From Terriglobia bacterium (GTDB lineage: Bacteria > Acidobacteriota > Terriglobia > 20CM-2-55-15): DNA of 64,000 nt. The stretch spans positions 384,001 through 448,000 of the forward strand of contig CBDAOY010000006.1 in the NCBI GenBank assembly GCA_965198225.1, read 5' to 3'. The notes under the pieces are model-generated. The model saw only the letters and a list, made by a program, of their open reading frames with translations. It made no database searches and was not told the DNA's origin. Both the position numbers and the translations under genes were made by a program. Of the stretch, positions 15,089-47,619 are shown piece after piece (positions within the stretch are counted from its first letter, which is position 1; every line of letters starts with the position of its first letter).

Positions 15089-15154
15089 GTACGTGCGCTC
15101 ATAGAGCGCAGGTTTGTGCCGGCCGGAAGATGTGCGGTCGTAGACCGCACCTAC
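15089..15154. repeat. REPIN, degenerate
   Basis: Same REP family with a few substitutions. Confidence 0.8.
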
Positions 15155-15317
15155 ACCCACTTGTCACTTCTTCCAACCAAATAACTGCAGCAGATTCCAG
15201 CATAGCGGTTTATTATCGTTGGTTCGGATCATACCGACGGGCGGCGCAGACTTGCGCCGCTTCTCCTCTATTCCGTCTCGACCCGACCACTCAATTCATA
15301 AAGGAACGAACAGACTT

Positions 15318-22587: not shown

Positions 22588-23271
22588 GCGTGTTAACACT
22601 AATGAGCATGAATGTTTTATAATCAGGCATGGAGATCACACAGGAGCAGTATTGTCGCATCGAGCCGGAACTGCCGCGTCAGCGGGGCAACGTCAGTCTT
22701 TCGAACCTGACGGTCTTGAACGCCATTTTGTATGTGGCTGAGCAGGGCTGCAAGTGGCGCGGTCTGCCCAAGCGCTTTGGCAACTGGCACACCATCTACA
22801 CCCGGATGAACCGCTGGTCCAAGAACGGGGTGCTCGACGCCGTCTTCGAAAAACTCCAGCGCGAGCAACTGGTGCGCATCCGGGTGGAAGCCGTTTCGAT
22901 GGACTCGACCATTGTGAAGGTGCATCCCGACGGCACAGGAGCGTTAAAAAAAACGGTCCGCAAGCGATCGGCAAATCCCGCGGTGGATGGACCACCAAGA
23001 TTCATCTGGTTGCCGCGAACGCTCGAACGGCGATAACGTTTGCGCTCTCGCCCGGCCAAGCGCACGACGCCCCGCAGGGCCGCGAGCTGCTCGCCGGCCT
23101 GGGGCCGTTGCCCGCGCCGCTGCCGCTGCTGATGGACCGTGCCTACCAGGACGACCAGACCCGCCAATTGGCTCTGGATTTTGGGTGGATTCCCGTCGTG
23201 CCGCCCAAGCGCAACCGCTTGGAGCCGTGGGAATACGACCGCGTTCTCTACCGCCGCAGGAACGAAGTCGA
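22588..23271 (+). mobile_element. IS5-family (IS427-group-like) element, 3'-truncated
   Basis: OrfA 22629-23036 (GCKWRGLPKRFGNWHTIYTRMNRW) and OrfB (SRGGWTTKIH, LMDRAY) joined at slippery TTAAAAAAAAC (~22944-22954, -1 shift). Breaks at YRRRNEV before the catalytic E. Likely left IR GCGTGTTAACACTA; no right IR found. Confidence 0.88.
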
Positions 23272-23739
23272 CCTGACGCCGTTCATACGCTGGCTCACGA
23301 TCGACAAGAAAATCGTAAAACCCGGCGACACGATTCGCGGCCAGGCGATGGTCGAAGACCCCGCCGGAGTCGCACGCTTCGCCGTGGCGTTCCAGGGACC
23401 GATGGGCCGCCGGACGACGATGCGCATGTCGTTCACGCCGCGAGCCAACAACAAGTCGCTGTTCGACGGGACGCTGACGATCCCGAAATGGATCGAACCG
23501 GGGCGGTACCTGCCCTACGACATGGCGCTGGGTAACGTTCTGGGCCACTTGAAGGGGTATTTCCCGGAATACGTTCCGGCGACGAGGAACCTGGTGCTGG
23601 AGGTCCTTCCCAGTACCGATGCCGATGTCATGCCCCCGACGCTGGAGGAATTTGGCATCGGCGCACCGGGTGAATCCACGGCCGATGGCGTAGCACAGTC
23701 CTATGACATTTCCGAATCCGTGATGGTGTGGGCGAAGCT
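23272..23739 (+). pseudogene. Internal fragment of a paralog of the Ig-repeat/magnetochrome-like protein (42806-44512)
   Basis: Collinear motif matches: GPMGRRTTM/GPHGRRTVM, WIEPGRY/WTEPGVY, EVLPSTDADVMPPTL/EVLPNPNADVIAPTV, VWAKL/VFAKV. Confidence 0.85.
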
Positions 23740-24234
23740 GTGGCCCGTCCTCAGCAGCCGATGAACGCGCCTGATTGCGTCATGCGCGTCTCGGCCCGGC
23801 CGGTACGCATACTGCTCCGGTTGCAGGTCGGCTTCGAAGATCGGCGATAACACCAGCATCGCCGCCGTCTGCACCACCCGATCCCGGAGACACGGAATGC
23901 CCAACGGCCGGAACTTCCCTCGTTGCTTCTTCGGGATGAGAACCTGCCGAACCGCATGCGGCCGATAGGTCCCTTCCTTCAGGTCCCGCGCCAGTGCTCC
24001 CAGCCACCGGTCTACCCCAAGCGCCTCGATGTCTCCGACCGTCTCGCCGTCCACCCCGGCCGCGCCGCCGTTGCGGCGCACGGCCTGCCAGGCGACTGCG
24101 AGCACGTCGTCGCGCCACACCTTGTCGCTCAGAGAGTAGAACCGGAAGCCCAGAGCTTCCTTCGCTTTCGCATGTAGCGCCGTCTGGAGTCGCTGAACTC
24201 TCTCCGAGGCTGTTAGGCTCTCGCCAGTCCTCAT
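23740..24234 (-). pseudogene. ltrA: Group II intron RT/maturase of intron A, truncated before RT domain 3
   Basis: RFYSLSDKVW, NGGAAGVDG, IPK..RPLGIPCLRDRVVQ, YAYRPGR; stops at LLRTGH with no YADD region. Confidence 0.9.
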
Positions 24235-24308
24235 GTCCCTTCCTCCGTCATGCGCTGCTCTCGAACTGAGGTCCCTTCCCTCCACCGGCATTACCCGGCT
24301 TCCCTGGT

Positions 24309-26039
24309 GTAGAGTCGAAAGTGGTCGGGCTGGTCTGCCCTTCCACCGTCCGCTCAATCAAACGGCTCGTGCGGTTTTCCCGCAAGCCGCTTTCCTCAGT
24401 TGCTCCTCGCACGGAGTCACCGGTCCACGAGACCGGGAATCAGATGCGTCAGTCGGACCAGACCGAACTCTCGAATAAGTCGTCGCGTCGGATAACGGCG
24501 CCACATCGTATTTCTCCACCGTTTCGCGAGAAACGAGTAGATACGGCGCTCAATCCAACGGTCCAGCTCGTTGAAGAGTCGGCGCACCCTCGCTTTGCGG
24601 TAATAGTTCCCCCAGCCCCGAATCACCGGGTTGAGCTGGTCGATGACTTCGCCCAGCTTCAGGGGAGCCTTACGGCGCGAGAGGTGTCGGATTTGCGTCC
24701 GGAACCTCTCGACCGACTTTTCCCGTGGAATGGCATACAGGTTATGGGGGTGCATTCCGCGACCACGCCTCTGTGTATCGGACAGACGCAGTCCTTTCCC
24801 TTGTTTCACCTTGTACCCCAAGAACTCAAAGCCTTGTCGAACGTGTACAATCCGCGTCTTCTTCGGATGAAGTCGAACTCCAAGTTCCTCCCAGAGAAAC
24901 CGCTCTGCAAATGCGAGCGCCTGCCGGGCTTGGGCCGGTGTCCTACAAACCACCACAAAGTCGTCCGCCCAGCGTGTGAGTCTTGACCTTGCCGGGTCAT
25001 CGCACGGTCAAACGGCGTCAGAAAGATGTTCGACCACAACGGACTGGCCACTCCCCCTTGGGGAACTCCCGTCCGCGTGGGTTGCCAGCAACCTCCTTCC
25101 AATACCCCCGAACCCAGGATTGCCCGGATCAGCCCCAGAACTCGGCCGTCGCTGATCTCTTCGGCGATCAAGTCGAGAAGCTTCTCCTGGTCGATCGTGT
25201 CAAAGAACTGCCGTAGGTCAGCATCAACCACCCAGAGGTCTCCGGCGCCTAGCTCTGCCCAGACTTTCCGCATCGCATCATGGGGTGAACGCCCCTTGCG
25301 ATACCCGAATGAGCAGTCCAGAAACAACGGCTCGAAGATTGGTTCCATCCGCTGGACCAGCGCCTGCTGACAGACCCGATCCATTACGGCCGGTATCCCC
25401 AGCTTTCGCATTCCTCCGTCGGACTTCCCGATCTCGACTCGCTTTACCGGCTTGGGTCGATAGGTGTCATCCCGCAGCTTTTGATGCAACAAGGCCAGAT
25501 ACTCCTCCTTGCGCCTTTCAAACTGCTCAATGGTCACTTCGTCGATGCCCGCGCTACCTCGGTTCCGTTTCACTTTCTCCCAGGCCAACTCCAGATTCTT
25601 GCGACTAAACACCTTGTCGATCAGCGAGTGGACCTTTCGCTTCCTTCCCTGTCTGCTTTCCAATGTCGCTGTGGGGCGGCGGGCGGCGGCTTCATCCGTA
25701 CCGCGTTTGGGTCTTTCACTAAAGGAACTATCCAAGTTCACGATATCTCCGCGTTTCCCATCGCTCGCACATTCACAACTGAGTACGGGGACTTCCCCCT
25801 CCAGCGGGCCTTTTGAACCCACCAGCGCCGCTGCTCGAAGCAACGATCCGAAACCTTATGTTTGCCGTCTCGTTCCTGAGTGTAATCTCGACCTTACCTT
25901 CCGCCCGGACGATACCAGGCCTCCCTGGGTCACTCGCGTCTCTTCTCCACCGTGTCGCCCGCACACACCTTGGTGCGATGGGGTGGAACCAATGCGCCTT
26001 CGCCCCCATAGTGCGGGCTCGACCATTCCCCATCTTTGG
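24309..26039 (-). mobile_element. Group II intron B nested in intron A; 3' end intact, 5' end missing
   Basis: Domain V GAAAGCGGCTTGCGGGAAAACCGCACGAGCCGTTTG, domain VI ending TTCGACTCTAC at 24309; no GTGCG start at the junction with intron A near 26040-26065. Confidence 0.85.
24417..25741 (-). pseudogene. ltrA: Group II intron RT/maturase of intron B (WADD motif, no endonuclease domain), 1-nt frameshift near 24985
   Basis: VHSLIDKV, GSAGID, LGIPAVMDRVCQ, DADLRQFFD, GVPQGGVASP; shifted frame gives RLTRWADDFVVVC, GFEFLGY and X-domain LNPVIRGWGNYY. Confidence 0.92.
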
Positions 26040-26547
26040 TGGGGTCTGAAGGGCATGAGGAGAACCGCCACCGGCAGGGCTTCCCGTGTTGCGTCCATCC
26101 CCCCCTTCCACACGTGCCGCCGCTACTACCCCGGCGGAACCGGTCGGTGCTCGCGTCGCTCGCTTCCCGACCGCTGGCAGCCTTCCCCGTATTCCGGGCG
26201 GATCGGCTTCCGCATCGCTTCGTTCCGAGGCCTGCGCAGCGTTCACATCGTTGCGGCCCGCGTGGTCGCTGAACCGCCCAGGGCGGCCCTTTGTCATCGG
26301 AGTGCTTCAGCCGATGTCGTTACCTCCATCGTCCGCTCCGACTGCTACCGGCTGGAGCGACAGTTGCCGGGCGGGGTTCGCAGAATGTTGGGAGCTCGGA
26401 TATGTTGGGGCCCGGTGTAAGTACTTGTCAGTATTGAACTGCTAGGCCAGACCTCCCAACATAACTTCACGACGCTTTTGGGACGCGTAAGTTGGGGGGA
26501 CGACAGATTTCGCCCATGGTAGAGCCTCTTTCAAGGAGGTTCTCACC

Positions 26548-27771
26548 ATGTTCGAGACACTGTTTTCTGCCGAGCGTGTCTTACGCCGGCATCGGGACGG
26601 CCCGCTCGCCGCACAGCGCGCCGCCTACCTGCAGGACCTGGTGTCCTGCGGATTGGCTCCCAGCACGCTCCGGGTCCGGGCTAGGCACTGCCTCCGGATA
26701 GCGACAAGCCTAAGCACCTGGCCGCCTGACCACTTGTTCTCTACGGACGAGGTAGCGGCGCTGGATACTCGCCGCCTTGCGTCTGGAAAGGCTCTCCGCC
26801 CACCGGTCGATGGCTTCCGCTCCACTGCGCTGGAATTGCTCAGCAGTCTGGGGCGGCTGCGCACGGACCCTCCGTGCGAGCACGACGACAAGCTGAATGC
26901 CTTCATCGCCTTCCAGCGCGAAACCAGTTGGCAGTCAGAGGAAACGTGCCTGATGGCGCGCCCGCGGATCCAGCGATTCCTAAACTACCTGCACCAGCGG
27001 GGTGTGGTCCTGGACGCTGTGTCGCCCGCAGACATCGATGGCTTTTTCGAGGAGATGGCTCAGGTCTGGAGTCGCAAGTCGTTAGCCACAGCCGCTTGGG
27101 CAATCCGTAAGTGGCTGCACTACAGCGGCCGACGCGGCTGGGCTCGACCCGGACTGGACGCGGCAGTCTTGGTGCCGCGTCTGTACTGCCGCGAGGGGCT
27201 GCCACTCGGACCCACCTGGGACACGGTTTCGCGCATGCTTGCCGCCACCGAGGGGGACGATCCTGCGGCGATCCGCGACCACGCGATCCTGCTGTTGCTC
27301 TCGGTCTATGGCGTGCGCTCGGGCGAAGTGCGCCGACTGCGCCTTGACGACATCGACTGGACCGGGAACCGGATCACGTTCGAGCGGTCCAAGAGCCACC
27401 GCCGGGACTTGCTCCCGTTGCATCCTCTGGTCGGCGAAGCGATTGCCCGCTACTTGTCACAATCCCGGCCCCGGACGGACAGCCGGATTGTCTTCCTCCG
27501 GGTACGTCCCCCGCACACGCCGCTCACCACCTGCGCGCTCCACGCCATCGTTGACCACTGCTATCCGGAAGCGGAAAGGCCGTCACGGGGACGGGGCCCG
27601 CACGGGCTGAGACACGCGTGCGCCCGTCATCTCGTCGAGGCTGGTCACAGCTTCAAGGAAGTGGGTGACCACCTCGGCCATCGCAGTCCCGACAGCGCTG
27701 GAATCTACGCGAAGGTGGATCTGCGCTCGCTGCGCCAAGTGGCGCCGGACGATCTCGGGGGCTTGGCATGA
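26548..27771 (+). CDS. Tyrosine recombinase RitA
   Basis: YGVRSGEV, HGLRH, LGHRS..GIYAKVD; GGAGG RBS. Confidence 0.92.
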   Translation: MFETLFSAERVLRRHRDGPLAAQRAAYLQDLVSCGLAPSTLRVRARHCLRIATSLSTWPPDHLFSTDEVAALDTRRLASGKALRPPVDGFRSTALELLSSLGRLRTDPPCEHDDKLNAFIAFQRETSWQSEETCLMARPRIQRFLNYLHQRGVVLDAVSPADIDGFFEEMAQVWSRKSLATAAWAIRKWLHYSGRRGWARPGLDAAVLVPRLYCREGLPLGPTWDTVSRMLAATEGDDPAAIRDHAILLLLSVYGVRSGEVRRLRLDDIDWTGNRITFERSKSHRRDLLPLHPLVGEAIARYLSQSRPRTDSRIVFLRVRPPHTPLTTCALHAIVDHCYPEAERPSRGRGPHGLRHACARHLVEAGHSFKEVGDHLGHRSPDSAGIYAKVDLRSLRQVAPDDLGGLA

Positions 27772-28715
27772 CGCTCGCCACTGCCGTCGATTCGTACGTT
27801 TCCGCGAAGCGCTCGCGTGGAGCGATTTACGAACGAGAGGGCCCCATCCTGCTCTCCTTCGTGCGCGCAACAGGCGACATCCCCGTCGGGGAGGTCTCCT
27901 ACGAACAGGCTCGGGCATTCTGTTCGGGCTCCGGCCCGGCCACCCGCTGGCAGGTGCACAAGCACAGCACACTCCGAACATTCTTCAAGCATCTCGTTGG
28001 CCGAGGGCACTTGAGCGCGTCACCCCTACCGGATCCGCCGCCACGCATCCGCTCCACCTTCAAGCCGTACATCTACTCCCGCGAGGAAATCCAGCACCTG
28101 CTCGATGCGACCGCAATCTTGCGCGACCGCCGTTGTCCGCTCCGCCCGGAGACCTTTCGCACCTTGCTGCTGCTGCTCTACGGCACTGGTCTGCGCCCAG
28201 GCGAGGCCCGACGCCTGCGGCTCTGCGATGCGGATCTCGACGACCGCATCCTCACCGTCTGGAACACGAAGTTCTTCAAATCGCGCTTGGTCCCGTTTGG
28301 CGCTTCCCTGCGGGATGTCTTGCGAGCTTACCGCGAGATCCGGCTGGCCCTGCCACTTCCCTCTGGCGATCGCTCGGCCTTCTTCGCCACAGCGGGCGGC
28401 AAGACGCTGTCCGCCGACTCTCTGTCTTCGGGATTTGCCCGCATGAGGAAGCGCGCCGGCATCCGCAATCCGCAGAATCGCCTCCAGCACCGCCTGCAGG
28501 ACGTCCGGCACACATTCGCCACCGGCCGACTCCTTCACTGGTACCGCGAAGGGGTCGATGTCCAAGCCCGCCTGCCTTGGCTGGCGACTTACCTCGGTCA
28601 CGCGGACCTGTCCGGTACCCAAGCCTACCTGACGATGACACCCGACCTGCTCGCCGAGGCCTCGCTGCGCTTTCAGCGCTTTGCCGAATCCTTGGCCCAA
28701 GGAGACGCTTCATGA
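27768..28715 (+). CDS. Tyrosine recombinase RitB
   Basis: GTGLRPGEA, TKFFKSRLVP, QDVRHTFA, LATYLGH..TQAYL; ATGA overlap with ritA. Confidence 0.92.
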   Translation: MTLATAVDSYVSAKRSRGAIYEREGPILLSFVRATGDIPVGEVSYEQARAFCSGSGPATRWQVHKHSTLRTFFKHLVGRGHLSASPLPDPPPRIRSTFKPYIYSREEIQHLLDATAILRDRRCPLRPETFRTLLLLLYGTGLRPGEARRLRLCDADLDDRILTVWNTKFFKSRLVPFGASLRDVLRAYREIRLALPLPSGDRSAFFATAGGKTLSADSLSSGFARMRKRAGIRNPQNRLQHRLQDVRHTFATGRLLHWYREGVDVQARLPWLATYLGHADLSGTQAYLTMTPDLLAEASLRFQRFAESLAQGDAS

Positions 28716-29725
28716 CATCCAAGCACCTGATCGGTCCGTTCGTCCGGCGCTTCCTGCTCGAGGAAGTCGTACAGGATCGCAACCTCAGCCCGCACACCCG
28801 CAAGAGCTACCGCGACAGCCTCAAACTGCTGTTCGCCTTCCTCGCCGAGCGCCACCGAACCGACCCCACGCGCGTCACTGTCGAGCAGGTCGACGCCACA
28901 CTCGTACGCGAGTTCCTGAGCGACCTCGAAGGACGCCGTGGCAACTCCGTTGCCACCCGCAATCAGCGCCTGGCAGCCTTGCGTTCTCTGTTCCGCTTCA
29001 TCGCGCGTCTCGCCCCGGAACTGGTGGATCAGGCCGCGCAAGTCCGGACCATCCCGGCACGCAAGACCCCGGTTCCCGTCATCCCTTACCTGGACAAGCC
29101 TGAAATCGAGGCCTTGCTCGCCGTCCCGGATCGGGCCACGGTCCAGGGCCGCCGGGACTACGCCGTGCTACTCCTGATGTACAACACAGGCGCTCGGGCC
29201 AGCGAGGCGGCCGGACTTTCTCTGGCCGACCTGAGCCTGCACGGCTCGCCCTCCGCGCGATTCGTCGGCAAGGGCGGCAGGCACCGTCTCTGCCCGCTCT
29301 GGCCCCGCACCGTCGGGGTCTTGCGCGAGGTCCTCGGCGAGCGTCTCGACGGCCCGCCCCAGACCCCTGTCTTCGTCGGCCAGCGTGGCCTGCCGCTCAC
29401 GCGCTTTGGCATTTACGAACTCGTGTGCCGCATCGCGCAAAAGGCTGCGCAAACCACGCCTTCGCTTCGAACCAAGCGGGTCAGCCCCCACACCCTGAGA
29501 CACACCACCGCAGTCCACCTGCTCCAAGCTGGCGTCGATATCAATACGATCCGTGCCTGGCTTGGGCACGTCTCTCTGGAAACGACCCACCGCTACGCAG
29601 AGGTCGACTTGGAGATGAAGGCGCGCGCCCTGCGTACATGCGCCAGCAACATTCCTGAACCGGCCCCTGTCGCCCCGAGTTGGCACAACGATTCGGACCT
29701 ACTGGCCTTCCTCTCGGCTCTTTAG
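28712..29725 (+). CDS. Tyrosine recombinase RitC
   Basis: YNTGARASE, GKGGRHR, SPHTLRHTTA, WLGHVSLETTHRYA; ATGA overlap with ritB. Confidence 0.92.
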   Translation: MTSKHLIGPFVRRFLLEEVVQDRNLSPHTRKSYRDSLKLLFAFLAERHRTDPTRVTVEQVDATLVREFLSDLEGRRGNSVATRNQRLAALRSLFRFIARLAPELVDQAAQVRTIPARKTPVPVIPYLDKPEIEALLAVPDRATVQGRRDYAVLLLMYNTGARASEAAGLSLADLSLHGSPSARFVGKGGRHRLCPLWPRTVGVLREVLGERLDGPPQTPVFVGQRGLPLTRFGIYELVCRIAQKAAQTTPSLRTKRVSPHTLRHTTAVHLLQAGVDINTIRAWLGHVSLETTHRYAEVDLEMKARALRTCASNIPEPAPVAPSWHNDSDLLAFLSAL

Positions 29726-35418: not shown

Positions 35419-37149
35419 TTAGCAGGAAATGCACTTGTGGTTGTTCCTGGCGCCCAGCATATCCAGCAGAGCCAGGGTCTCCTGATACGGCTGAACCCGC
35501 TGCCGGCTGCCGTTCGCCATGTCGGCGATCGTCTGGCCGTTCTTGGCGACCGCGTCCAATCGGGCACCTTGGGACACCAGGTATAGGATCATTTCGTTGT
35601 CACCCCGCCCCGCGGCATTGTGGAGCGCGGTGCGTCCGCCGCGAGGGCCTCTTCGGCGGAACTGGTTGCCTGCCGCATTCGGATCTTCAGGCGCACCGGT
35701 ATCCGCCGCGTTGACATCCGCGCCGAGCTCCGCGACAAGGTATCTCACGGCCGGCATCCGACCCAGCGGTGTCGTGACAGAGTCGTTGCCGTGGAAGCCG
35801 GCCCCCGATGCGATCAACAGAGGCGTAATGCCCTCGATGCTGGGAATCGTCGGATCGGCACCGTGTTCGACCAACAGGCGCATCCCGTCCACATCGCCGA
35901 CGGCGGCAGCCTTCCAGAACGGCGTCGTCCCCGAGGAGTTGTTTCTCTCCAGAGCAAAGTTGTAGCCGATATACCACAGGTTCTTCCGCAGCCGGGCGTT
36001 CGGGTCGGCCCCTTTCTCCAGCATCAGCTTCATCAAGTCGAGATACTGTGTCTTCTCGTAGAAGGTGGTCGGCTGAGGACGGTTTGTTCTCAGAGTCCAC
36101 TGGATTCTCAAGGCGCCGTACAGGGGCGTCGCCCCGTCGTCGCTCGCGATCGTCACGTCTGCACCGCTCTCGACCAGATACTCAGCGATATCCAGGTTCC
36201 CGTTGATCGTCGACAATAACAGCGCGGTACTGTTGTCACCGTTAACCGAATCCAAATCCGCTCCGAGGTCGACCAAGGCGCGCACCGCCTCGTAGGCGCC
36301 ATCACGGGAGGCGTACATCAAAGGGGTCAGTTTTCCCTTGGGGTTGCGCCCCTTCTCGGTGCTCAACTCGGGCTTCTCGTCCTTCTTGGCTTCGTCTGAC
36401 TTCTCTTCCTCGTCGGGCTTCTTGGCGGCCTCCTCCTGAGCCTGCGCGGCCTGGCCGCGGCCCCGTCCACCCCGGCCGGCCTGACCCGCTTGACCGCCCC
36501 GGCCTCGGCCCTGCCCGAACGTAAAATTCTGGCCCGGTCGATTCCGCGGTGGCGGTGGTTCGATCTGCTTGCTCGCCTTGTTGATGTCCGCACCGGCGTC
36601 CGCCAGCGCTCTTATCGCCTCGGGACGATCGAACGCCGCCGCAAAAGCCAGTGCGGTCTGTCCGCGTTCGGTCTCGGTCGCATTCACATCAGCGCCCGCT
36701 TCAGTCAGCAATCGTACCGACGTGGCGTCTCCCGCGCTGGCCGCCATCATCAACGGAGTAATACCCCCCGTCGCCTCGGTATCGGGATCTGCACCTGCCT
36801 TCAGCAGCACGTCCACGATGTCGGCATGGCCGCTCTTGCTCGCCATGTACAGCGGCGTGTACCCACCGAGCCGGGTCGTGGCCCTTGTGTTCGCTCCCGC
36901 ATACAGAAGGGTCTGAGCCAGCTCCGAGTCCCCGTTGTACGCAGCCCAGTGCAGCGCCGTCATACCGTCACCCTGGGCCGAATTCACGTCGACAGCCTGC
37001 CGTATCAGAGCGTGCACAGCATCGACGTCGCGCATCATCGCAGCATCTGCGACCCGTGTGTCGGCGGGGGCGCCGAGGAGGACAAGGGTCAGGGTAAGGG
37101 CGCCAACCAGGCTGAGCGAGACCGCCCACGTGATGTTCTTGCGCAACAT
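35419..37149 (-). CDS. Secreted ankyrin-repeat protein with C-terminal CxxC
   Basis: Many TALHWAA/TPL..A repeats; ends KCISC; GGAGG RBS before MLRKN. Confidence 0.9.
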   Translation of the reverse strand: MLRKNITWAVSLSLVGALTLTLVLLGAPADTRVADAAMMRDVDAVHALIRQAVDVNSAQGDGMTALHWAAYNGDSELAQTLLYAGANTRATTRLGGYTPLYMASKSGHADIVDVLLKAGADPDTEATGGITPLMMAASAGDATSVRLLTEAGADVNATETERGQTALAFAAAFDRPEAIRALADAGADINKASKQIEPPPPRNRPGQNFTFGQGRGRGGQAGQAGRGGRGRGQAAQAQEEAAKKPDEEEKSDEAKKDEKPELSTEKGRNPKGKLTPLMYASRDGAYEAVRALVDLGADLDSVNGDNSTALLLSTINGNLDIAEYLVESGADVTIASDDGATPLYGALRIQWTLRTNRPQPTTFYEKTQYLDLMKLMLEKGADPNARLRKNLWYIGYNFALERNNSSGTTPFWKAAAVGDVDGMRLLVEHGADPTIPSIEGITPLLIASGAGFHGNDSVTTPLGRMPAVRYLVAELGADVNAADTGAPEDPNAAGNQFRRRGPRGGRTALHNAAGRGDNEMILYLVSQGARLDAVAKNGQTIADMANGSRQRVQPYQETLALLDMLGARNNHKCISC

Positions 37150-37162
37150 AAAGGTTTCCTCC

Positions 37163-38548
37163 CTAGATATCGATCTCGCCCGTGCTGTCGCCGAATTGTT
37201 CGAGTTCGTCGAAGCCAAGCCGGTGCAGCACGCTCAGGTGCAGGTTCGCAGACGGCGTCGCGTCCGGCATGATGAAGTGCTGACCACCCTTCACCCGGCC
37301 TCCGGCGTGCCCCAGGAGGAATAGCGGCACCCGCTTGTGATTGTGCAGATTCGAATCTCCCATCGGGGACCCGTAAAGGATCACGGTGTTATCCAGCAGC
37401 GAGGCGTCCCCGTCCGGCGTGTCCTTCAGCTTGTCGGCAAAGTACGCCATTGTACTGACGTGGTACTTGTTGATCTCGGAGAACTGCGTGATGCGCTGCT
37501 CGTTCTCCCCGTGGTGAGAAGCCCGGTGGAACCCGGTTTCCACACCGCTCTCCGGAAACGTCCGTCCGGATACGTCCCGGCTCAGCTTGAAGGCCGAAAC
37601 CCGCGACGTGTCGCTGGCGAAGGCGAGAACCTGCAGGTCTATCATCAGCTTGACATGTTCGTCCCAGGAATCGGGCACGCCGATCGGGGCCGAATCCAAC
37701 TCCCGGAGCTCACCGCTCGCGTTTTTCTCCTCGATGCGCGCAATCCGCCGCTCGATCTCGCGGACGTTCTCGAGATGCTGATCCAGGCGGTGGCGGTCCG
37801 CCGGGCCGAGCTTCGTCTTCAGGTCTGCGACCGTGTGCGATACCCAGTCCAGGATGCTTCGGTCCATCACCCGGCGCTCGGCCCGATCTTCGGACGTCCC
37901 GCCGACCCCGAACAGCTGGTCGAAGACCATACGGGGATCGCGCACCATGGGCAGCGGCGTGGTGGGCGATGCCCAACTGATCGAGTTCGTGTACGCACAG
38001 GAGTAGCCGTAGTCGCACCCTCCCGCATTGTCGATGTTCTCGATGTTGAGCTGGATCGACGGAAGCGGTGTGTCCAGACCGAACCGCTGCGCGTAGAGCT
38101 GGTCGAGGGAGGTGCCGGCATGGATGTCGGAACTCTGAGTCTGCTTCGGATGCGACTGTGTCAGGAACACCGCGGCCGAACGGAAATGATCGCCGCCGAT
38201 TTCTTTGACGATCCACGCCTCCGCACCCTTCATGTCGGTGTTGCTGACGATCGTAAGGTAGTCTTTCCACGGCTCGAGCGGCTGCAGGCTGCTCGGCGCG
38301 AGGTCGAACTCGCGGCCAGCCTCGGCCGGAGACCACAGGTTCTGGGTGGCGCCCCATCGGGTAGACCCCGCAGAACCGTGGACCATCTCCACACACGCCA
38401 GCCGAATGGGCCTCCCGGTCGGCGCGGCGGCTTCCTGCCTCGACGAGGGCATCGCCGGCGCCATGGCCTCCAGGAACGGTAGAGCCACCGTAGCACTCAT
38501 GCCGCGGAGCACTGCGCGCCGGGAAATGCGCTTCTTCGTGATGAACAT
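37163..38548 (-). CDS. DUF1552 (HXXSHH) Tat-exported protein
   Basis: ISRRAVLRG twin-arginine, GCDYGYSCAY, FHRASHH, MGDSNLHNH. Confidence 0.9.
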   Translation of the reverse strand: MFITKKRISRRAVLRGMSATVALPFLEAMAPAMPSSRQEAAAPTGRPIRLACVEMVHGSAGSTRWGATQNLWSPAEAGREFDLAPSSLQPLEPWKDYLTIVSNTDMKGAEAWIVKEIGGDHFRSAAVFLTQSHPKQTQSSDIHAGTSLDQLYAQRFGLDTPLPSIQLNIENIDNAGGCDYGYSCAYTNSISWASPTTPLPMVRDPRMVFDQLFGVGGTSEDRAERRVMDRSILDWVSHTVADLKTKLGPADRHRLDQHLENVREIERRIARIEEKNASGELRELDSAPIGVPDSWDEHVKLMIDLQVLAFASDTSRVSAFKLSRDVSGRTFPESGVETGFHRASHHGENEQRITQFSEINKYHVSTMAYFADKLKDTPDGDASLLDNTVILYGSPMGDSNLHNHKRVPLFLLGHAGGRVKGGQHFIMPDATPSANLHLSVLHRLGFDELEQFGDSTGEIDI

Positions 38549-38671
38549 CCTTCCTCCCTACTGAAACCGAGCGTAGCTAAGTACTTCGATTCTTATTAAT
38601 AATTACGATTGTGTATTCGTCCAGCTGCGATTTCGAATCTTGGAATTTCAAATTTGCGATTTCGCAATCGA

Positions 38672-41140
38672 TTACCTCTCCCTTGCTTCGGTGACAGGCT
38701 CCGCCTCCGTGTTCATCTGAAAAGGCGGGCTGTCCACGATGCCCAGAATCAGGGAAGAAAAGCGATTGTCGTTCAGGGCTGCTTCCCTCGTGATCGTCCG
38801 AATCGCCGGCATATCGAAATATTCGATCCTCCGGCCGATCGCAAACGACATCAGTTTTTGCGTCAGCCCCTGGATGAACGTGTCGGAATATTTGAGTATT
38901 CCCTGTCGCAGCGTGGCCGGACCGTCCAGCGGCGTTCCGTCGTACAACTCAGTGGTCGAGTCGATCGGAATGCCTGCCGAGTGAATCCGGAGCCCCTCGG
39001 CGTCGAGCGCGAAAGTCTTGTCCCAGGTCCGCCACCTGCCGGTCACATCGAAGTTTTCCAGGGCCAGACCCAACGGGTCGATCATCCGGTGACATGAGCT
39101 GCACGCGGGGTTCGCCCGGTGCGACTGCATCCGCTCACGCACGGTCAGAACTTTGCCCGAATCGACCGCCTCGGTCTCTTCCAGCGAAGGCACCACGGGC
39201 GGCGGTGGCGGTGGATCCGTGCCGAGCAGCACCTGCAGTACCCACTTGCCCCGGAGCACCGGAGACGTCCGATCGGCGTTGGACGTCATCGTCAGGATGG
39301 CGCCTTTGCCGAGCAGCCCGCGGCGGTAATCGTCGGCGACCGTAACGCGGCGGAACTGCCCCCCACGAACGTTCGGGATGCCGTAGTGGTCGGCGAGGCG
39401 CTCGTTGACGAACGTGTCGTCCGCGGTAATCAGGTCGAGCACGTTTCGATCCTCACGCACGACGCTGTCGAAAAACAGCTCCGCTTCCCTCTCCAGCGCC
39501 AGCGCGAGCGTGTGGTCGTAAAAGGGGAAGTAGAAAGGATCCGGCTCGATATTCATAAGGTCCGGCAGATGAAGCCACAGGTTCGCAAACTTCTCGGACA
39601 GCCAGATCGATCGCGGATCGGCCAGCATGCTTCGGACCTGAGCCTCGAGCACTACCGGATCCTGGAGCCTACCCTGGTCGGCCAGGTCTACCAGCTCGTC
39701 GTCAGGAGGTGTACCCCAGACGAAGTAGGAAAGGCGAGAAGCCAGGGCCAGATCCCCAACGTAGTAGCTCTGGCCAGCCGCAACATCGGTCGGGGGAACC
39801 TCGAACTTGAAGACGAAGTAGGGGCTGGTCAGCATGGCGTGAAGAGCCGACCGGATGCCCGATTCGAAGTCTCCGCCCTTTTCACGGCCCTGGCCGTAGA
39901 AGAGCATGAGGCCTTCCATGTCCTCGTCCGTCACCGGTCTCCGGTACGCCTTCCGGGCGAGCGCTCGGATGATCTCCCTCGCGCAGGGGGTTTCCTCGGC
40001 CGGACTCAGCGGACGGCAGTTGAAAACCGCGCGCCGCGGTGCCGAGTCGGAAACACCCGAAACGTTGAACGGGCCGCTGATCTCGAACTCGCGAAGGTGC
40101 GCGTAGATGGTGAGATCGTTCGTGTTCGGGGCGTCGCTGTCGACCATCGTCTGAGCGATTTCCCGGATGTCGTCTTCGACGATGGGTGAGTGCTTGTTCA
40201 CGAATGCGACCGCGACCCGGTGGGGGCCTGCCTTCACGAAAAGCCGTCCTGTCGTGAGGTTCAGGCCGGTTTCATCCGCTTCCGTCATTTCGGGGTCGAC
40301 TTCGAGCAACGCGATGCGTTCTCCGTCGAGCGAAACCTCGACCTCCTCGTCTTCGACGTTGGCAAAGAATCGGCCCGTCGCGGTGGCAAACAGCAAGACC
40401 CGGATGTCGTACTCACCGTCGGCAGGAAAGTTGTGCATGACCGACATGCCGCCACGAGTACCGAACGGTGTGCCGGGCACATGTTCCAGCTGCGACGCCA
40501 ATCGCGTGGCCTTGAACATCACCGACGTTGGAGTTGCGTTGGGATCGCCCAACGCCTGGTTGGTGATCTCGCCGGCAGCCCTCATGTAGCCTTCCATCAG
40601 GGACGCCGACAGCGGTTGCGAGTCCGCGATGTTGTCCATACCTTCGCTGAGCATGTCGGCGGGCAGGTACTTGGCAACGTCCACCTCGACGCCGAGAAGG
40701 TGTTTGATCGAGTTCGCATATTCGTCCCGGGTGAGTCGCTGGAACCCTCGGGTGCCGGGATTTGGTCCCTCAGCCGCCGCCTCGTCGAGCCGTATCTCGA
40801 TCGCGCTGGCGAAAGCATCCAGGGGCCCTTTCTCCGGGCGGTATTCGCCGGCCGGGGGCATCAAACCTGCCTTCACCTTCCCGACGACTTTCTCGGCAAG
40901 CTCGGCGTTCTGCTCCGGATGGGCAAAGTCCAAGTTTGTCAGCGTCATTCCACCGAACAGGTCGACCGGGTTATGGCAGTGTGAGCAGTACTCGGCGATG
41001 AACTCACCCTGCGCTTCGAGCGACATCGGCGCAGTCTGCTCCCCCGCCCCCGGCGCCTGCTCCACAGCCAGATTCATACCACCGAGTGCGAGCATGCAAA
41101 CCAGCGCGCCGCCCACAACTCCAAGAATGTATCGCGTCAT
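38672..41140 (-). CDS. DUF1592/DUF1588-type (Planctomycete cytochrome c/PSD) protein
   Basis: CSHCH and CSSCH heme motifs, RLTRDEYANS, LASRLSYFVW..PD, TSPVLRGKW, DPLGLALENFD. Confidence 0.92.
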   Translation of the reverse strand: MTRYILGVVGGALVCMLALGGMNLAVEQAPGAGEQTAPMSLEAQGEFIAEYCSHCHNPVDLFGGMTLTNLDFAHPEQNAELAEKVVGKVKAGLMPPAGEYRPEKGPLDAFASAIEIRLDEAAAEGPNPGTRGFQRLTRDEYANSIKHLLGVEVDVAKYLPADMLSEGMDNIADSQPLSASLMEGYMRAAGEITNQALGDPNATPTSVMFKATRLASQLEHVPGTPFGTRGGMSVMHNFPADGEYDIRVLLFATATGRFFANVEDEEVEVSLDGERIALLEVDPEMTEADETGLNLTTGRLFVKAGPHRVAVAFVNKHSPIVEDDIREIAQTMVDSDAPNTNDLTIYAHLREFEISGPFNVSGVSDSAPRRAVFNCRPLSPAEETPCAREIIRALARKAYRRPVTDEDMEGLMLFYGQGREKGGDFESGIRSALHAMLTSPYFVFKFEVPPTDVAAGQSYYVGDLALASRLSYFVWGTPPDDELVDLADQGRLQDPVVLEAQVRSMLADPRSIWLSEKFANLWLHLPDLMNIEPDPFYFPFYDHTLALALEREAELFFDSVVREDRNVLDLITADDTFVNERLADHYGIPNVRGGQFRRVTVADDYRRGLLGKGAILTMTSNADRTSPVLRGKWVLQVLLGTDPPPPPPVVPSLEETEAVDSGKVLTVRERMQSHRANPACSSCHRMIDPLGLALENFDVTGRWRTWDKTFALDAEGLRIHSAGIPIDSTTELYDGTPLDGPATLRQGILKYSDTFIQGLTQKLMSFAIGRRIEYFDMPAIRTITREAALNDNRFSSLILGIVDSPPFQMNTEAEPVTEARER

Positions 41141-41596: not shown

Positions 41597-42772
41597 CTAT
41601 CCAACAACCCAGGGCTTGTATTTCGGTACGTCTCCGACGTGCGAGGCGAAGAGATGGTCCCTCATCTGGCCGATCGCATACGGCGCTTTCACGCCGAACA
41701 TCCCGGTCAGGGTCGGAACCATGTCCTTCCGGTCGACCAGCAGGTCCGTACTTCCCTTCTTGAAGTCCGGTCCCCAGAAGATAGATGCCGAGCGATGGCA
41801 CTGGTAGTACCCCGTGCTGTGGTTCACCGCACCGTACATGTTCACCTCATCGTCCCGTCCGAACTCCGGCCGTATCACGATCGCGGTGTTCTGGGAGAAG
41901 TACGGATCGTTCTCGACGAAGTCGATGAGCTTGCCTAACTGCTCGTCGGTCGTCTTGTGGACCTTCTCGTACTCGAAGTAGCCCGTCTGCTGACGCAGGT
42001 ATCCACCATTGCCGTGGCCCGTGTCATGCCCGACCTGCTGATACAGGATCATCTTCGGTTTGAATGTCTGCAGCACATCCGGTAGCACCGCCAACCCCAG
42101 CGCATCCCCGATGAACGGATCGCGCGGTATGGGCTGGAACTTCAGGTCGAACTCCCAGTACCGCTTCGCATAGGTCGCTTCGATGAACTCTTCAAGCTGT
42201 TTCTTCTCTGCCGCCGTCACGCCCATGTCCGGGAACTCATCCGCGACCACCTGGGCCGGCGTCCGTTTCATGTCCGGCCAATACACGTGTGTGGCCGTCA
42301 GCGATACCGGACGCGCATCTTCGCGAAAGTCCGGATGCGCCGTCCAGTACTTCTGGTTGTAACGCCACTGCCGGTAGTAGCTGACGCCGTTGACGTACCA
42401 GTAGTTGGTCGCCGCGTCGCCATGCGCTTTCCGGACGTAGTGCGGTGGTGTCGGATGCAACGGAATACCGTTCTGTATCCGGTTCCCCGTCAGCAGCTCC
42501 GTCCATGAATGCCCGTGGTCCGAGACCGTCTCGTTGTGGTCTTCCTCGTAGACGAACCCCGCGTTGACCAGCCGCTGGTAGTTCGGCGACAGGTCTTTCT
42601 TCTCATACCACTCCGACTTCCGGGATCCGTTCCCGTTGATGATCCAGATGATGTGCTTGGTCTTGAGGTTCAGACTCGATTCCTGGGCCAACGCCTCGGG
42701 CGTCATCCGGCCACCGACTGCCATCGCGCCGCCGGCCATTCCCAGGGACTTTGCAAAATCACGTCTATTCAT
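41597..42772 (-). CDS. Tat-exported alkaline-phosphatase-superfamily/DUF1501-like protein
   Basis: MNRRDFAK twin-arginine; KHIIWIINGNG first strand, SDHGHS, HDTGH, IVIRPEFGR, DMVPTL. Confidence 0.7.
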   Translation of the reverse strand: MNRRDFAKSLGMAGGAMAVGGRMTPEALAQESSLNLKTKHIIWIINGNGSRKSEWYEKKDLSPNYQRLVNAGFVYEEDHNETVSDHGHSWTELLTGNRIQNGIPLHPTPPHYVRKAHGDAATNYWYVNGVSYYRQWRYNQKYWTAHPDFREDARPVSLTATHVYWPDMKRTPAQVVADEFPDMGVTAAEKKQLEEFIEATYAKRYWEFDLKFQPIPRDPFIGDALGLAVLPDVLQTFKPKMILYQQVGHDTGHGNGGYLRQQTGYFEYEKVHKTTDEQLGKLIDFVENDPYFSQNTAIVIRPEFGRDDEVNMYGAVNHSTGYYQCHRSASIFWGPDFKKGSTDLLVDRKDMVPTLTGMFGVKAPYAIGQMRDHLFASHVGDVPKYKPWVVG

Positions 42773-42805
42773 GAATCTCTCCCTTTAAAAAGAATGTTTT
42801 ACTTC

Positions 42806-44512
42806 CTACGGTTCATGGCAATTCAGGCATGCGCCACGCGGGGGGTGCGGTGGAATCATATCCACTCTGCGGATCTTTCCCGCCCGGGCCGGCTGAGCGG
42901 TCGGAGCTGCCATTGCACCCGACCCGGCAGTCGCCTGCCCTTCACGGTTCTTTTTCATCGCGTCACGCAGCTGATGACCACCGGTGTAGGTGATGCGCAC
43001 CGTGTCGATCTCGGGGATGTACTCCGGCAACAGGTCCAGATAGTTGTCGGCGTTGTCCCGAGCCATGATGCGGTCGATCTTCCACTCACCGGGCTCCATC
43101 CATTCGTCGGTTTCAACCTGTCCCCTCCAGAGATTCTGGGAGACATCGAGACCCGCTTTCTGGATGACGTCCGGCCGTGCGACCGGTTTCAGGTGGACGC
43201 GCGAGCGGTTGATGTAGCTGGGCACCGGCGTGAAGTTCACCGCCAGCGTGCCCACACCCGACATGTCGTCGGTGATGATCGCGTTCACCGTGACCGGCTC
43301 TCCCAGCCGCGCTTCGGTTTGATCGACCCACACCGAAAACAGGGTCGGTGGCTGCGTGTCGTGGTTGGCATCATCCTGGGTCATGTTGATGACGGCGTCC
43401 TCGAGCAGCGGATGGGTCGTGCGGAACATGTGCACGGTCTTGCCCGCCTTGTCGGACGCCCACATCGACAGGAGTTCATACTCGCCGGCCCCCCACCATT
43501 CCGGAATCGACAGCATCGCGCCATAGACGTCCTGCTGGCCGACGACCTTGTTCAGCTTGGCTTCGATGAATTTGCCTTCCGGTGTGTTGAAGCGCACCGT
43601 TACCGTGTCCACACCCGACTTGTTGTCGGTCACCTTCGCAAACACCGGAAGCGGCTGACTCACGGCCTGGGTCCGAGTTTCGCCATCCTCGGCGTTCAGC
43701 GTATTCACCTTCACCCAGTGCACGGTCGGCGCAATCACGTCGGCGTTGGGATTAGGCAGAACCTCGATCTCCATACCGCGGAGTCCGGGATGGTGGTCCG
43801 AGTGGTAGATCTTCGAACTGCGGGACGAATTTCCCGGCGACGCATAAGTCAGGTAATAGACGCCCGGTTCCGTCCACTCGTTGGTCTTGAGCGCGCCGCG
43901 CATGATCGGCGAACCCGGCGAAACCGGCGTCAGGCTGGCGCCCATCACGGTCCGGCGACCATGGGGACCGAAATATCGCATGCTCAGGCGGCCCTGGGTA
44001 CCTGTCAAATCCTCGACGACCGCTTCGAAAGCGACCGACTCTCCAGCCTGGATTCGGCGTTTGCCCAGGATCTTGGCGCTCTTGACGACCGGCACGTAGT
44101 GCCAGCTTTTCAAGTCGCGCCAGTCGAACTCGCGGTCCGGGTTCGAGATGAACTCGTCGACCGGCCAATCCATCGGATCCATGATCGGATCGACAGCGTC
44201 AGTCGAATAATACGTGTCCGTACCTGGCGCCATCGGGAAGCCGGGGCCACGCACGTCACGCACTTCGTCGGTCGGCCCCATGATCATACCAAGCGGGCCG
44301 GCCACCTTGGGCAGTCCCGCTGTATTGACCCCGGACGGGTTGTTGCCAGACGCATAACGATTCGCGATCCGCTGCGGCGTGTTCTGCTGCTGAGCGGCCG
44401 CTTGCTGTTGTTGTCCGCCTCGACGCTGTTGCGCGCTGATATCCGACGTGGTGGATACCACAAGTAGAGCGATCACAAAGACGGCGAGGAAGACTAAGGA
44501 AAGTCTCTTCAT
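42806..44512 (-). CDS. Secreted protein with three Ig-like repeats and a C-terminal magnetochrome-like heme c motif
   Basis: Signal peptide; repeats D..(A/P)PT(V/L)...(V/I)TD..SGV...W..G.(Y/W); C-terminus IPPHPPRGACLNCHEP. Confidence 0.75.
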   Translation of the reverse strand: MKRLSLVFLAVFVIALLVVSTTSDISAQQRRGGQQQQAAAQQQNTPQRIANRYASGNNPSGVNTAGLPKVAGPLGMIMGPTDEVRDVRGPGFPMAPGTDTYYSTDAVDPIMDPMDWPVDEFISNPDREFDWRDLKSWHYVPVVKSAKILGKRRIQAGESVAFEAVVEDLTGTQGRLSMRYFGPHGRRTVMGASLTPVSPGSPIMRGALKTNEWTEPGVYYLTYASPGNSSRSSKIYHSDHHPGLRGMEIEVLPNPNADVIAPTVHWVKVNTLNAEDGETRTQAVSQPLPVFAKVTDNKSGVDTVTVRFNTPEGKFIEAKLNKVVGQQDVYGAMLSIPEWWGAGEYELLSMWASDKAGKTVHMFRTTHPLLEDAVINMTQDDANHDTQPPTLFSVWVDQTEARLGEPVTVNAIITDDMSGVGTLAVNFTPVPSYINRSRVHLKPVARPDVIQKAGLDVSQNLWRGQVETDEWMEPGEWKIDRIMARDNADNYLDLLPEYIPEIDTVRITYTGGHQLRDAMKKNREGQATAGSGAMAAPTAQPARAGKIRRVDMIPPHPPRGACLNCHEP

Positions 44513-44693
44513 AGCACTTGGTTTCCTCCGTCGCTGATCTATGTATACAGATGCAGGAAAATGTTGGCTTGACTCAAGAGCAATATACTCCCATAGTCCT
44601 GCAACCTCAATGTTTTAATAACAGCTTATCGACGGGACGAGGTGGGGGAAATCGTTCCGGAAAGCGTCCCTGAAATTACATTGGAACGAGGCC

Positions 44694-47226: not shown

Positions 47227-47619
47227 ATGAAACGGACAATGCTGGTACTGATCGCCATGATTCTGGCGGTGGGTATCGTTTACGCGCAAAAAGAGCCACA
47301 GGGTGACGACTACAAGCAATGGATGCAGGATGTCCGCCAGAGCATCCGTGGCTTCACCAACGCTTACAACGACATGAACATGGCCAACGCGACCGAAGCC
47401 GTGGACGTCCTGGTCGACAGGTTCGGCAAGATGGAGACGCACTGGGAAGCCAAAGGTATCGAGGATGCGGCGGCAATGTCTAAAGAGTCCAAAGAATTCA
47501 TGGTCGATGCGCAGGGCAAGATGAAACTCAACGATGTCGCCTACGCGCTGAACCTGCTGGAACTGGCACGTAAGAATTGCAGCAGCTGCCACCAGAAGTA
47601 TCGTCCGCCGTCACCTTAG
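47227..47619 (+). CDS. Small secreted helical c-type cytochrome (cytochrome c'-like)
   Basis: Signal peptide, helical body, C-terminal NCSSCHQKYR; AAGGAG RBS. Confidence 0.8.
   Translation: MKRTMLVLIAMILAVGIVYAQKEPQGDDYKQWMQDVRQSIRGFTNAYNDMNMANATEAVDVLVDRFGKMETHWEAKGIEDAAAMSKESKEFMVDAQGKMKLNDVAYALNLLELARKNCSSCHQKYRPPSP

Follow-up and report, generated by a model that had tools for sequence, protein, structure and literature searches.

A conserved magnetochrome-like tail, predicted to bind heme c, in an exported acidobacterial protein encoded next to a TAT-exported partner

The 64,000-nucleotide stretch of contig CBDAOY010000006.1 from a Terriglobia bacterium (phylum Acidobacteriota), to which we refer as a whole as the window, encodes on its minus strand an exported protein of 568 amino acids (hereafter the target, open reading frame (ORF) 42806..44512) and, as the next gene, a protein of 391 amino acids with a twin-arginine translocation (TAT) signal (hereafter the partner, 41597..42772). 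The target ends in a short segment with a single CxxCH motif, which had been singled out in an original prediction made from the sequence of the window as a relative of the magnetochrome (MCR), the minimal heme-binding domain of the magnetosome proteins MamP, MamE, MamT and MamX. Here we examine the conservation of this tail, its likeness to the magnetochrome and to other cytochromes, and the genomic context of the target gene. The features of the two genes are given below; model confidence is expressed as the predicted local distance difference test (pLDDT), and Ig stands for immunoglobulin.

42806..44512, minus strand: target gene, 568 aa, ATG start, Sec-exported product; whole-length homologs and codon-position GC
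44432..44512, minus strand: Sec-type signal peptide of the target, residues 1-27; cleavage after ISA, placed by eye; basic N-terminus, hydrophobic helix 5-19
44093..44323, minus strand: conserved N-terminal segment, residues 64-140; invariant residues, low model confidence (pLDDT 50-74)
43763..44089, minus strand: Ig-like beta-sandwich domain 1, residues 142-250; AlphaFold2 strands with pLDDT of about 90, Foldseek
43379..43726, minus strand: Ig-like beta-sandwich domain 2, residues 263-378; AlphaFold2, Foldseek, weak Pfam matches
42983..43345, minus strand: Ig-like beta-sandwich domain 3, residues 390-510; AlphaFold2, Foldseek
42878..42976, minus strand: disordered Ala/Gly/Pro/Thr-rich linker, residues 513-545; column identity 0.26, pLDDT <50 from residue 531
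42809..42877, minus strand: predicted magnetochrome-like c-type heme module, K546-P568, 23 residues; conservation, sub-threshold MCR match, synonymous codon changes
41597..42772, minus strand: partner gene, 391 aa, TAT-exported product (TIGR01409), probably of the alkaline-phosphatase-superfamily fold

The reading frame of the target has a GC content of 0.62/0.46/0.77 in the three codon positions, a pattern typical of coding DNA, and a whole-protein search identified 24 whole-length homologs at E<=0.001; these relatives carry no Pfam annotation and are labelled hypothetical where any name is given. Because the minus-strand frame has this coding pattern as well as homologs, the overlapping antisense ORF (42509..44467, plus strand, 652 aa) was set aside as a shadow ORF of high-GC DNA. 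The signal region of the target lacks a Cys for lipidation, and the N-terminal signal peptide makes heme attachment in the periplasm possible. The segment that follows the signal peptide contains numerous residues that are invariant in a 22-row alignment (G79, A95, P96, D99, Y102, D119, E120, F121, S123, N124, P125, D126, L134 and K135) and may be a candidate docking segment. For the analyses below, an alignment of 52 rows was used, which consists of the window protein and 51 full-length or near-full-length relatives, with identity to the window protein dropping to about 30%; fragments shorter than about 390 aa and protein P0013 were excluded. The search that found 21 of the 52 rows was seeded with the tail, and accordingly, the sample is biased toward tail carriers.

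The AlphaFold2 model of the target built on this alignment (mean pLDDT 79.2, pTM 0.68) contains three confident beta-sandwich domains followed by a short helix, with pLDDT falling below 50 over residues 531-567. When compared with the PDB using Foldseek, the model matched tandem Ig rods such as titin, SiiE, the extenders of ice-binding adhesins, and the MG domains of alpha-2-macroglobulin; weak matches to Pfam families of the Ig type were also found in the 52 members (DUF7743 in 33, MG2 in 18 and Big_7 in 14). The linker between G512 and K546 spans 20-83 residues (median 33) and is dominated by Ala (22%), Gly (13%), Pro (12%) and Thr (10%). About one third of the relatives in the first alignment (for example, P0011, P0012, P0014-P0018 and P0021) additionally carry, just before the tail, a conserved linker insert of about 25 residues with a pattern like TLxNGRxxDLxPGAxPDPxTG (alignment columns 690-720). 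The anatomy that had been read from the sequence, that is, three Ig-like repeats, a flexible Ala/Pro linker and a unit of about 23 residues with the PH-x5-CxxCH pattern, is thus borne out by the structural model, the Foldseek matches, the linker composition and the alignment; the location given for the unit, 42806..42877, corresponds to the stop codon (42806-42808) plus the last 23 codons of the target (42809-42877).

The C-terminus of the target reads KIRRVDMIPPHPPRGACLNCHEP and can be written as I547-x7-P555-H556-x5-C562-L-N-C565-H566-E-P568. This tail is present in 22 of the 24 matches of the whole-protein search; the exceptions are P0017, a fragment of 323 aa, and P0013, whose sequence stops just past the third Ig domain. 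Among 169 proteins collected by the searches, 34 contain CxxCH, in each case as a single copy and as part of the tail motif at the extreme C-terminus, and the remaining 135 are family fragments without the C-terminus or Ig-repeat proteins that are related via the repeats alone. Twelve residues (R549, D551, P555, H556, P557, R559, G560, C562, N564, C565, H566 and P568) are invariant in all 52 alignment rows, including the PH pair and the CxxCH motif, the conservation of which in homologs was one of the points on which the original prediction could be checked. The mean column identity is 0.94 for residues 546-568; it ranges from 0.42 to 0.57 in the N-terminal segment and the three domains, and drops to 0.26 in the linker. 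The protein ends exactly at P568 in 47 of the 52 members. Searches with residues 529-568 brought up the same family in 47 of 52 candidates of 312-994 aa and in 7 of 9 candidates of 30-311 aa; among these candidates, the tail was not found on any other architecture, the target family being the only one detected.

At the DNA level, the tail codons of the window differ from those of locus L005 by 15 synonymous changes and 1 non-synonymous change, and from those of locus L006 by 17 and 2, respectively; over 45 pairs of loci, the means are 10.4 synonymous and 3.4 non-synonymous changes. Since the synonymous sites of the tail are heavily substituted, recent gene conversion does not explain the sameness of the tails, and the codon changes point to strong purifying selection acting on the tail peptide. 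The conservation of the tail together with the excess of synonymous over non-synonymous changes rules out a chance motif.

The magnetochrome has been defined as psi1-X5-9-PH-X5-9-CX2CH-psi2, a unit of 19-28 residues in which the His of the PH pair is the sixth heme ligand and two hydrophobic residues close the fold (Arnoux et al. 2014, PMC3971196). Compared to this definition, the tail, judged from its sequence, carries four of the five elements. The CX2CH element is C562-L-N-C565-H566, in which neither the two Cys nor the His vary across the 52 members; the [P/T/H]H element is P555-H556, followed in all 52 members by five residues, the spacing that is found in both MamP magnetochromes; the psi1 position, seven residues before the PH pair, is occupied by Ile in 44 members, Val in 4, Leu in 3 and Tyr in 1; and the unit from I547 to P568 is 22 residues long and holds the only CxxCH of the protein. 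What is lacking is psi2, the hydrophobic residue that closes the fold: position 567 is Glu in 49 of the 52 members and Val in 3, and Pro568, the invariant last residue, may or may not take its place. Nor is there a tandem pair of magnetochromes, given the one CxxCH per protein in all 34 carriers. The module is therefore single, as had been predicted.

Profile searches point in the same direction, albeit below the respective thresholds. The original prediction had proposed scoring the tail against the MCR hidden Markov model (HMM), and MCR (PF18509) indeed is the sole cytochrome family in Pfam that matches the target (E=0.0033, profile positions 5-25 of 30), but the score of 17.4 bits falls short of the 30.4-bit cut-off. 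All 52 family members match MCR at E<=1, the best one at 6.2e-4, and none reaches the cut-off, which probably was set on proteins with two MCRs. In NCBIfam, the best match is the MamP equivalog NF040965 (E=0.013), confined to residues 553-566 and scoring 15.2 bits against a cut-off of 300; a PDZ domain was not found in the target with Pfam. When a profile of 15 tails was compared to 177,635 distinct PDB sequences, MamP (4jj0/4jj3) ranked first, at a sub-threshold E=0.074. The tail aligns with the first magnetochrome of MamP as IMPHPYRGPCTQCH and with the second one as PHRDRGPCAACH, the pattern PHxxRGxCxxCH being common to all three.

The same data bear on the possibility that the tail is a generic heme site of the multiheme type that converged on the magnetochrome pattern and receives the sixth ligand from the partner, from another tail, from Met552 or from His138. 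Met552 is present in 51 of the 52 members and His138 is nearly invariant. A language-model comparison of residues 540-568 (Atlas) places the tail closest to reaction-centre, NrfB-like, c3 and c7 cytochrome clusters, with no MCR cluster, at scores of 0.84-0.85; the comparison covers clusters of at least 50 members, and scores below 0.9 are leads only. In a single-sequence PDB search with the last 39 residues, in which no match was significant, the small tetraheme cytochrome 1m1p (E=3.1) slightly outscored MamP (E=5.5), and because 1m1p carries a PH-x5-CxxCH of its own, the motif by itself does not mark a magnetochrome. The second match of the tail profile in the PDB is NapB, with CLNCH.P (E=0.21). 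However, none of the multiheme Pfam models (c3, c7, NrfB-like, Paired_CXXCH) matches the target at E<=1, whereas the bis-His multiheme cytochromes NapC, NapB, NrfA and NrfB of E. coli cross-match c3, c7, Paired_CXXCH, NrfB-like and other multiheme models, and none of the four matches MCR at E<=10. Likewise, none of 12 further ORFs with a CxxCH motif, taken from the window and related loci, matches MCR at E<=1; this set comprises PSCyt/DUF1592 proteins, class I cytochromes, a cd1 nitrite reductase and cytochrome c'-like proteins. Because these control cytochromes never match MCR, the likeness of the tail as seen by HMM is specific to the magnetochrome. Furthermore, it is MamP that comes first in the PDB with the family profile, His556 is invariant whereas Met552 is replaced by Leu in one member, and the spacing of the ligands is the same as in MamP. 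Convergence of a multiheme-type site on the magnetochrome pattern therefore seems quite unlikely to us as an account of the target.

A different possibility is that the tail carries no heme at all but forms a metal site of the Cys2His2 type, or a redox-active CxxC tail, by which metal would be delivered to the partner or the active site of the partner would be plugged and regulated. The four residues H556, C562, C565 and H566 are potential ligands of Zn, Cu or Fe, the weak PDB matches include RG.CLNCH from a zinc site of RNA polymerase I (E=1.5), and the partner looks like a metalloenzyme fold. Nevertheless, in a protein exported via Sec, a CxxCH motif with an invariant His immediately behind its second Cys is the hallmark of covalent heme attachment, TAT substrates normally are loaded with metal before export, and all the better database matches are cytochromes. 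We consider a non-heme tail very improbable. Conversely, covalent binding of heme c by the tail is very likely from its sequence, a magnetochrome-like organisation with both axial His residues within the unit is likely, and common descent with the magnetochrome is possible; with only about 14 aligned residues, the comparison is compatible with homology as well as with convergence.

The genomic context, over the DNA examined, shows no connection with magnetosomes. As the original prediction stated, there is no mam-type gene in the window: Pfam and NCBIfam searches found none, and among the 37 window ORFs, Pfam identified housekeeping genes, TonB-type outer-membrane proteins, a mobile-element patch, ankyrin proteins and others. 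To extend the comparison, ten related loci (L001-L010) from genome assemblies, all of Acidobacteriota, were examined over 10 kb on each side, and none of the 54 flanking proteins belongs to a mam-type family. The TPR (tetratricopeptide repeat) protein encoded upstream of the target was considered as a candidate MamA and dismissed, its 37.5 bits against a cut-off of 200 reflecting generic TPR similarity. Magnetochromes have been called "endemic" to magnetotactic bacteria (PMC3971196) and, in 2024, were stated to be "found exclusively in magnetotactic bacteria" (PMC11648623). Judging by titles and the opening lines of abstracts, the literature searched contains no magnetochrome-like domain outside magnetotactic bacteria; the titles likewise report no acidobacterial magnetosomes, and nothing was found there that links the magnetochrome with Acidobacteria.

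What does accompany the target gene, and was overlooked in the original prediction, is the gene for the TAT-exported partner, with which it forms a conserved two-gene cassette. The partner gene starts 33 bp past the target stop codon, and in each of the 10 readable sources (the window, L001, L002 and L004-L010; L003 ends inside the target) the target gene is immediately followed by a partner homolog, with the other neighbors differing between paralogs. The loci come from two complete Terriglobia chromosomes that are metagenome-assembled genomes (MAGs; OZ252023.1 and OZ253536.1), a Solibacteraceae MAG and an "Acidobacteria bacterium" MAG, which contain 2, 2, 2 and 4 copies of the cassette. The distance matrices of the target and the partner for the 10 pairs are strongly correlated (r=0.89; in a Mantel test, 1 of 5000 permutations reached this value), relatedness of the sequences inflating the correlation. 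Both proteins fall into the same four groups, {window, L001, L002}, {L004, L007, L008}, {L005, L006} and {L009, L010}, and because these groups cut across genomes, the pair has been duplicated and passed on as a unit. We lean toward regarding the cassette, as part of the best explanation of the tail, as a multi-copy feature of Terriglobia/Bryobacterales (Acidobacteriota) that is unrelated to magnetosomes; no description of it was found in the literature searched.

This pairing also bears on the possibility that the target is a true magnetochrome relative that acts alone on iron, as a periplasmic or extracellular Fe(II) oxidase or iron redox buffer like MamP, with the Ig rod presenting an exposed heme to iron or minerals and the neighboring gene being incidental to the chemistry. 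The MCR-specific HMM and PDB matches apply equally to this scenario, the PH-X5-CxxCH spacing is identical to that in MamP, the first magnetochrome of which shares PHP.RG.C..CH with the tail, and invariant Asp/Asn-rich motifs of the Ig domains could bind cations; moreover, Fe(II) oxidation has been reported for the MamP magnetochromes (PMC11648623). However, no iron-related gene is consistently found nearby in the window and the ten loci, the only constant neighbor being the co-duplicated TAT-exported partner (10 of 10 loci); the PDZ "crucible" of MamP is absent; every match is sub-threshold; and the two-electron logic that has been proposed for tandem magnetochromes (PMC3971196) is inapplicable to a single module. 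A free-standing iron oxidase is, in our assessment, unlikely. Being one half of a conserved, repeatedly duplicated cassette, the target gene points instead to the redox subunit of a periplasmic enzyme.

The partner has a recognizable twin-arginine signal, which scores 18.0 bits with TIGR01409 and so exceeds the cut-off of 16.7, and Pfam TAT_signal is matched by 7 of the 9 members of the partner family at E<=10. Three weak, concordant leads suggest that it probably belongs to the alkaline-phosphatase superfamily. In the Atlas comparison, the partner scores 0.95 to clusters that are partly annotated as DUF1501, Phosphodiest, Metalloenzyme and Sulfatase, with DUF1501 in 15% and 32% of the members of two of these clusters. 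The sole PDB profile match is a sulfatase (E=0.064). Finally, all 50 listed Foldseek matches, including sulfatases, NPP/autotaxin and phosphonoacetate hydrolase, are members of this superfamily, at E>=0.022, and are only a lead because the AlphaFold2 model of the partner is poor (pLDDT 49.5). The invariant residues of the partner family, T82, H86, G96, H249-D250-x-G-H253, E303-F-G-R-D-D308 (including D307) and H318, presumably resemble the nucleophile and metal-ligand motifs of the alkaline-phosphatase superfamily. None of the 9 members matches the DUF1501 model (PF07394) at E<=10, and a relationship between the partner and the DUF1552 protein that is encoded nearby was rejected (hhalign probability 0.2).

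A complex of the mature partner, the mature target and heme was predicted with a score of 0.58 (0.58, 0.58 and 0.36 in the individual runs; 0.00 for the best of 3 controls), which lies in the zone that the tool classes as weak; the prediction came without a reported interface. The mark for this score is passed by 116 of 157 solved complexes as compared to 2 of 215 mismatched pairs, and passing scores of 0.60 or less were obtained for only 18 of the 157 solved complexes and for both of the mismatched pairs that passed. The contacts agree between runs by at least 42%, and the pLDDT of the partner in the complex is at least 73. Given the strong prior provided by the gene order and this additional, weak support from modeling, a physical association of the target and the partner is more probable than its absence.

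Taken together, the observed anatomy, conservation and gene pairing, and the specific, sub-threshold likeness of the tail to the magnetochrome, are best accommodated, in our opinion, by a periplasmic enzyme of two subunits, one of them the TAT-exported partner, for which the target provides an electron relay with one heme on a tether, an interpretation that we favor by a modest measure. Heme attachment, bis-His ligation, the complex and the electron-relay role are what we infer from these observations. Under this scenario, the exported target would be a rod of three Ig-like domains bearing a single c-type heme tail of magnetochrome-like organisation. The tail would receive covalent heme in the periplasm, with the CxxCH motif holding the heme and providing one axial His (His566) and the invariant PH pair, five residues upstream, providing the other one (His556), which would result in a small, solvent-exposed, low-spin heme, on which the hydrophobic residue seven positions before the PH pair would pack. 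The Ig rod and/or segment 64-140 might dock on the partner, and the disordered tether of 20-83 residues could allow the heme to move back and forth from the partner (or its substrate) to a different periplasmic carrier, relaying one electron at a time. A more far-reaching version, in which the tail is a genuine magnetochrome relative outside magnetotactic bacteria, namely, a single, free-ended MCR that serves, in soil Acidobacteriota, as the tethered heme of a TAT-exported alkaline-phosphatase-superfamily enzyme with no apparent cofactor, we regard as conceivable, with the balance tilted against it.

Several observations weigh against these interpretations. On the side of the tail, these are the absence of psi2, the failure of the Pfam, MamP equivalog and PDB profile matches to reach the respective thresholds, the Atlas affinities to multiheme clusters, and the occurrence of the bare motif in 1m1p. 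On the side of the partner, no Pfam family was identified in any of the 9 members, and nothing beyond the TAT signal was detected in Pfam or NCBIfam; the structural model is poor and the complex score is in the weak zone. A redox cofactor site is not evident in the partner either, there being a single, unconserved Cys and no recognized molybdopterin or Fe-S domain, so that the counterpart with which the heme would exchange electrons is not apparent. Thus, of the original claim of a magnetochrome relative, the part that stands is that MCR/MamP provides the best match in Pfam, in NCBIfam and in the PDB profile search. Given that the Pfam cut-off is not reached, psi2 is lacking and the magnetosome context is absent, the tail, with its predicted mode of action being that of a magnetochrome, does not count as a demonstrated member of that family.

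The surroundings of the cassette include other candidate redox proteins, along with mobile elements. The respective features of the window are as follows.

44582..44610, minus strand: weak match to a sigma-70-like promoter, located 70-100 bp before the start of the target; 2 sites against 1.5 expected, chance level
35419..41140, minus strand: trio of a PSCyt1/PSD/PSCyt3 protein (DUF1592 type, 822 aa, two CxxCH), a DUF1552 protein (461 aa) and an ankyrin-repeat protein (599 aa); Pfam
47227..47619, plus strand: small exported protein of 130 aa resembling cytochrome c', with CxxCH close to the C-terminus; Pfam Cytochrom_C_2 at E=0.0024, below the cut-off
22754..23764, plus strand: DDE transposase, in the mobile-element patch
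24806..25843, minus strand: group II intron reverse transcriptase ORF, RVT_1
26246..26387, minus strand: group II intron, Rfam group-II-D1D4-4, 65.7 bits
26548..27771 and 27768..28715, plus strand: two adjacent tyrosine integrases, in the mobile-element patch

A scan for promoters and terminators around the cassette detected sites no more numerous than in shuffled sequences. The trio is found near the cassette in 5 of the 11 sources (the window, L001, L002, L009 and L010), in varying positions. Its 822-aa protein has the domain order PSCyt1/PSD3/PSD5/PSD4/PSCyt3/PSD2 and the DUF1552 protein corresponds to HXXSHH, which makes this a classical "planctomycete-specific" module in an acidobacterium, of a type that is sister to the DUF1501 and PSCyt modules considered below. 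The gene for the cytochrome c'-like protein is located within 3 kb of the cassette, in the same position, in the window and in L001-L003, and a homolog with 41% identity directly follows the partner gene in L007. The trio or the cytochrome c'-like protein could be further redox partners, the association of the latter being loose.

 The gene just upstream of the target in L009 (8621-9541) and L010 (8559-9547, as two ORFs) encodes a TPR protein with CxxCH at residue 56, and the TPR protein in the same position in the window and in L001-L003 is devoid of CxxCH. In L007, a molybdopterin oxidoreductase-domain protein is encoded directly upstream of the target and a cytochrome cd1 nearby (3603-5685 and 14208-15845), and L009 contains a sulfite-oxidase-like Mo enzyme together with a class I cytochrome c (19346-21215); these periplasmic redox neighbors are not consistent across the loci. 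The mobile-element patch of the window (22754-29700) is located between two TonB-type outer-membrane protein genes, and the gene order around the cassette in the window is unlike that in the closest relatives, L001 and L002, perhaps owing to this patch. Farther along the window, a second large ankyrin-repeat protein of 648 aa (59040-60986, minus strand) adjoins a 532-aa protein with an N-terminal Rieske 2Fe-2S domain (61508-63106, minus strand).

The magnetochrome is considered the smallest known mono-heme cytochrome unit and has been treated as endemic to magnetotactic bacteria (PMC3971196; PMC11648623). The same organisation in proteins of common soil bacteria that are not magnetosome proteins would mean that the minimal heme module is more widely used, whether by homology or by convergence, and the single-copy C-terminal version would lend itself readily to study and to the engineering of fusion tags. 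Should the tail be a true relative of the magnetochrome, the exclusivity to magnetotactic bacteria stated in PMC11648623 would be overturned, the "lone MCR" ancestral state postulated by Arnoux et al. (2014, PMC3971196) would be supplied, and a first handle would be gained on the function of the modules of Planctomycetes, Verrucomicrobia and Acidobacteria that combine a cytochrome with a TAT-exported partner. Should the tail be an ordinary heme site, the finding would shrink to a new family of small-tailed cytochrome subunits.

The target-partner cassette can be compared with three kinds of known systems. The tail resembles the MCR (PF18509) of MamP, MamE, MamT and MamX in that it is a predicted mono-heme unit of about 20 residues with the hydrophobic-X7-PH-X5-CxxCH pattern, located in an exported protein beside a non-cytochrome domain. 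Unlike the MCR proteins, the target has a single module, at the extreme C-terminus and on a long disordered tether, which is far more conserved than the host protein; the host is Ig-like rather than a PDZ protein or protease; and the gene resides in Acidobacteriota, with no mam genes within 10 kb, and is paired with that of a TAT-exported partner.

In the periplasmic enzymes NapA/NapB and SorA/SorB, a TAT-exported catalytic subunit is combined with a Sec-exported small c-type cytochrome subunit. The target and partner genes similarly are adjacent, with one product exported via TAT and the other, with its predicted heme c, via Sec. In contrast to such enzymes, the partner has no molybdopterin, Fe-S or other recognizable redox-cofactor domain, and the cytochrome is reduced to a 23-residue tail; the Pfam NapB model does not match the target.

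The third comparison involves the modules of DUF1501 and PSCyt/PSD proteins (Kamneva et al. 2012, PMC3542564; He et al. 2017, PMC5615132), which occur in Planctomycetes, Verrucomicrobia and some Acidobacteria; a part in electron transfer has been suggested for these modules, which have no known function. Unlike in these modules, the partner is outside the DUF1501 and DUF1552 models, no match to PSCyt or PSD was found among the 25 families listed for the target and its 51 relatives, and the heme motif of the target is C-terminal and MCR-like as opposed to the N-terminal PSCyt. The general layout is nonetheless similar: an exported CxxCH protein with beta-sandwich domains of the protein- or carbohydrate-binding kind is encoded beside a twin-arginine protein resembling sulfatases and phosphodiesterases, the twin-arginine signal being recognized on the enzyme-like partner by TIGR01409, and the cassette occurs in many paralogous copies per genome. 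With one heme and one partner, the cassette would represent a simpler form of the abundant DUF1501/PSCyt-type logic and could make the biochemistry of these systems testable.

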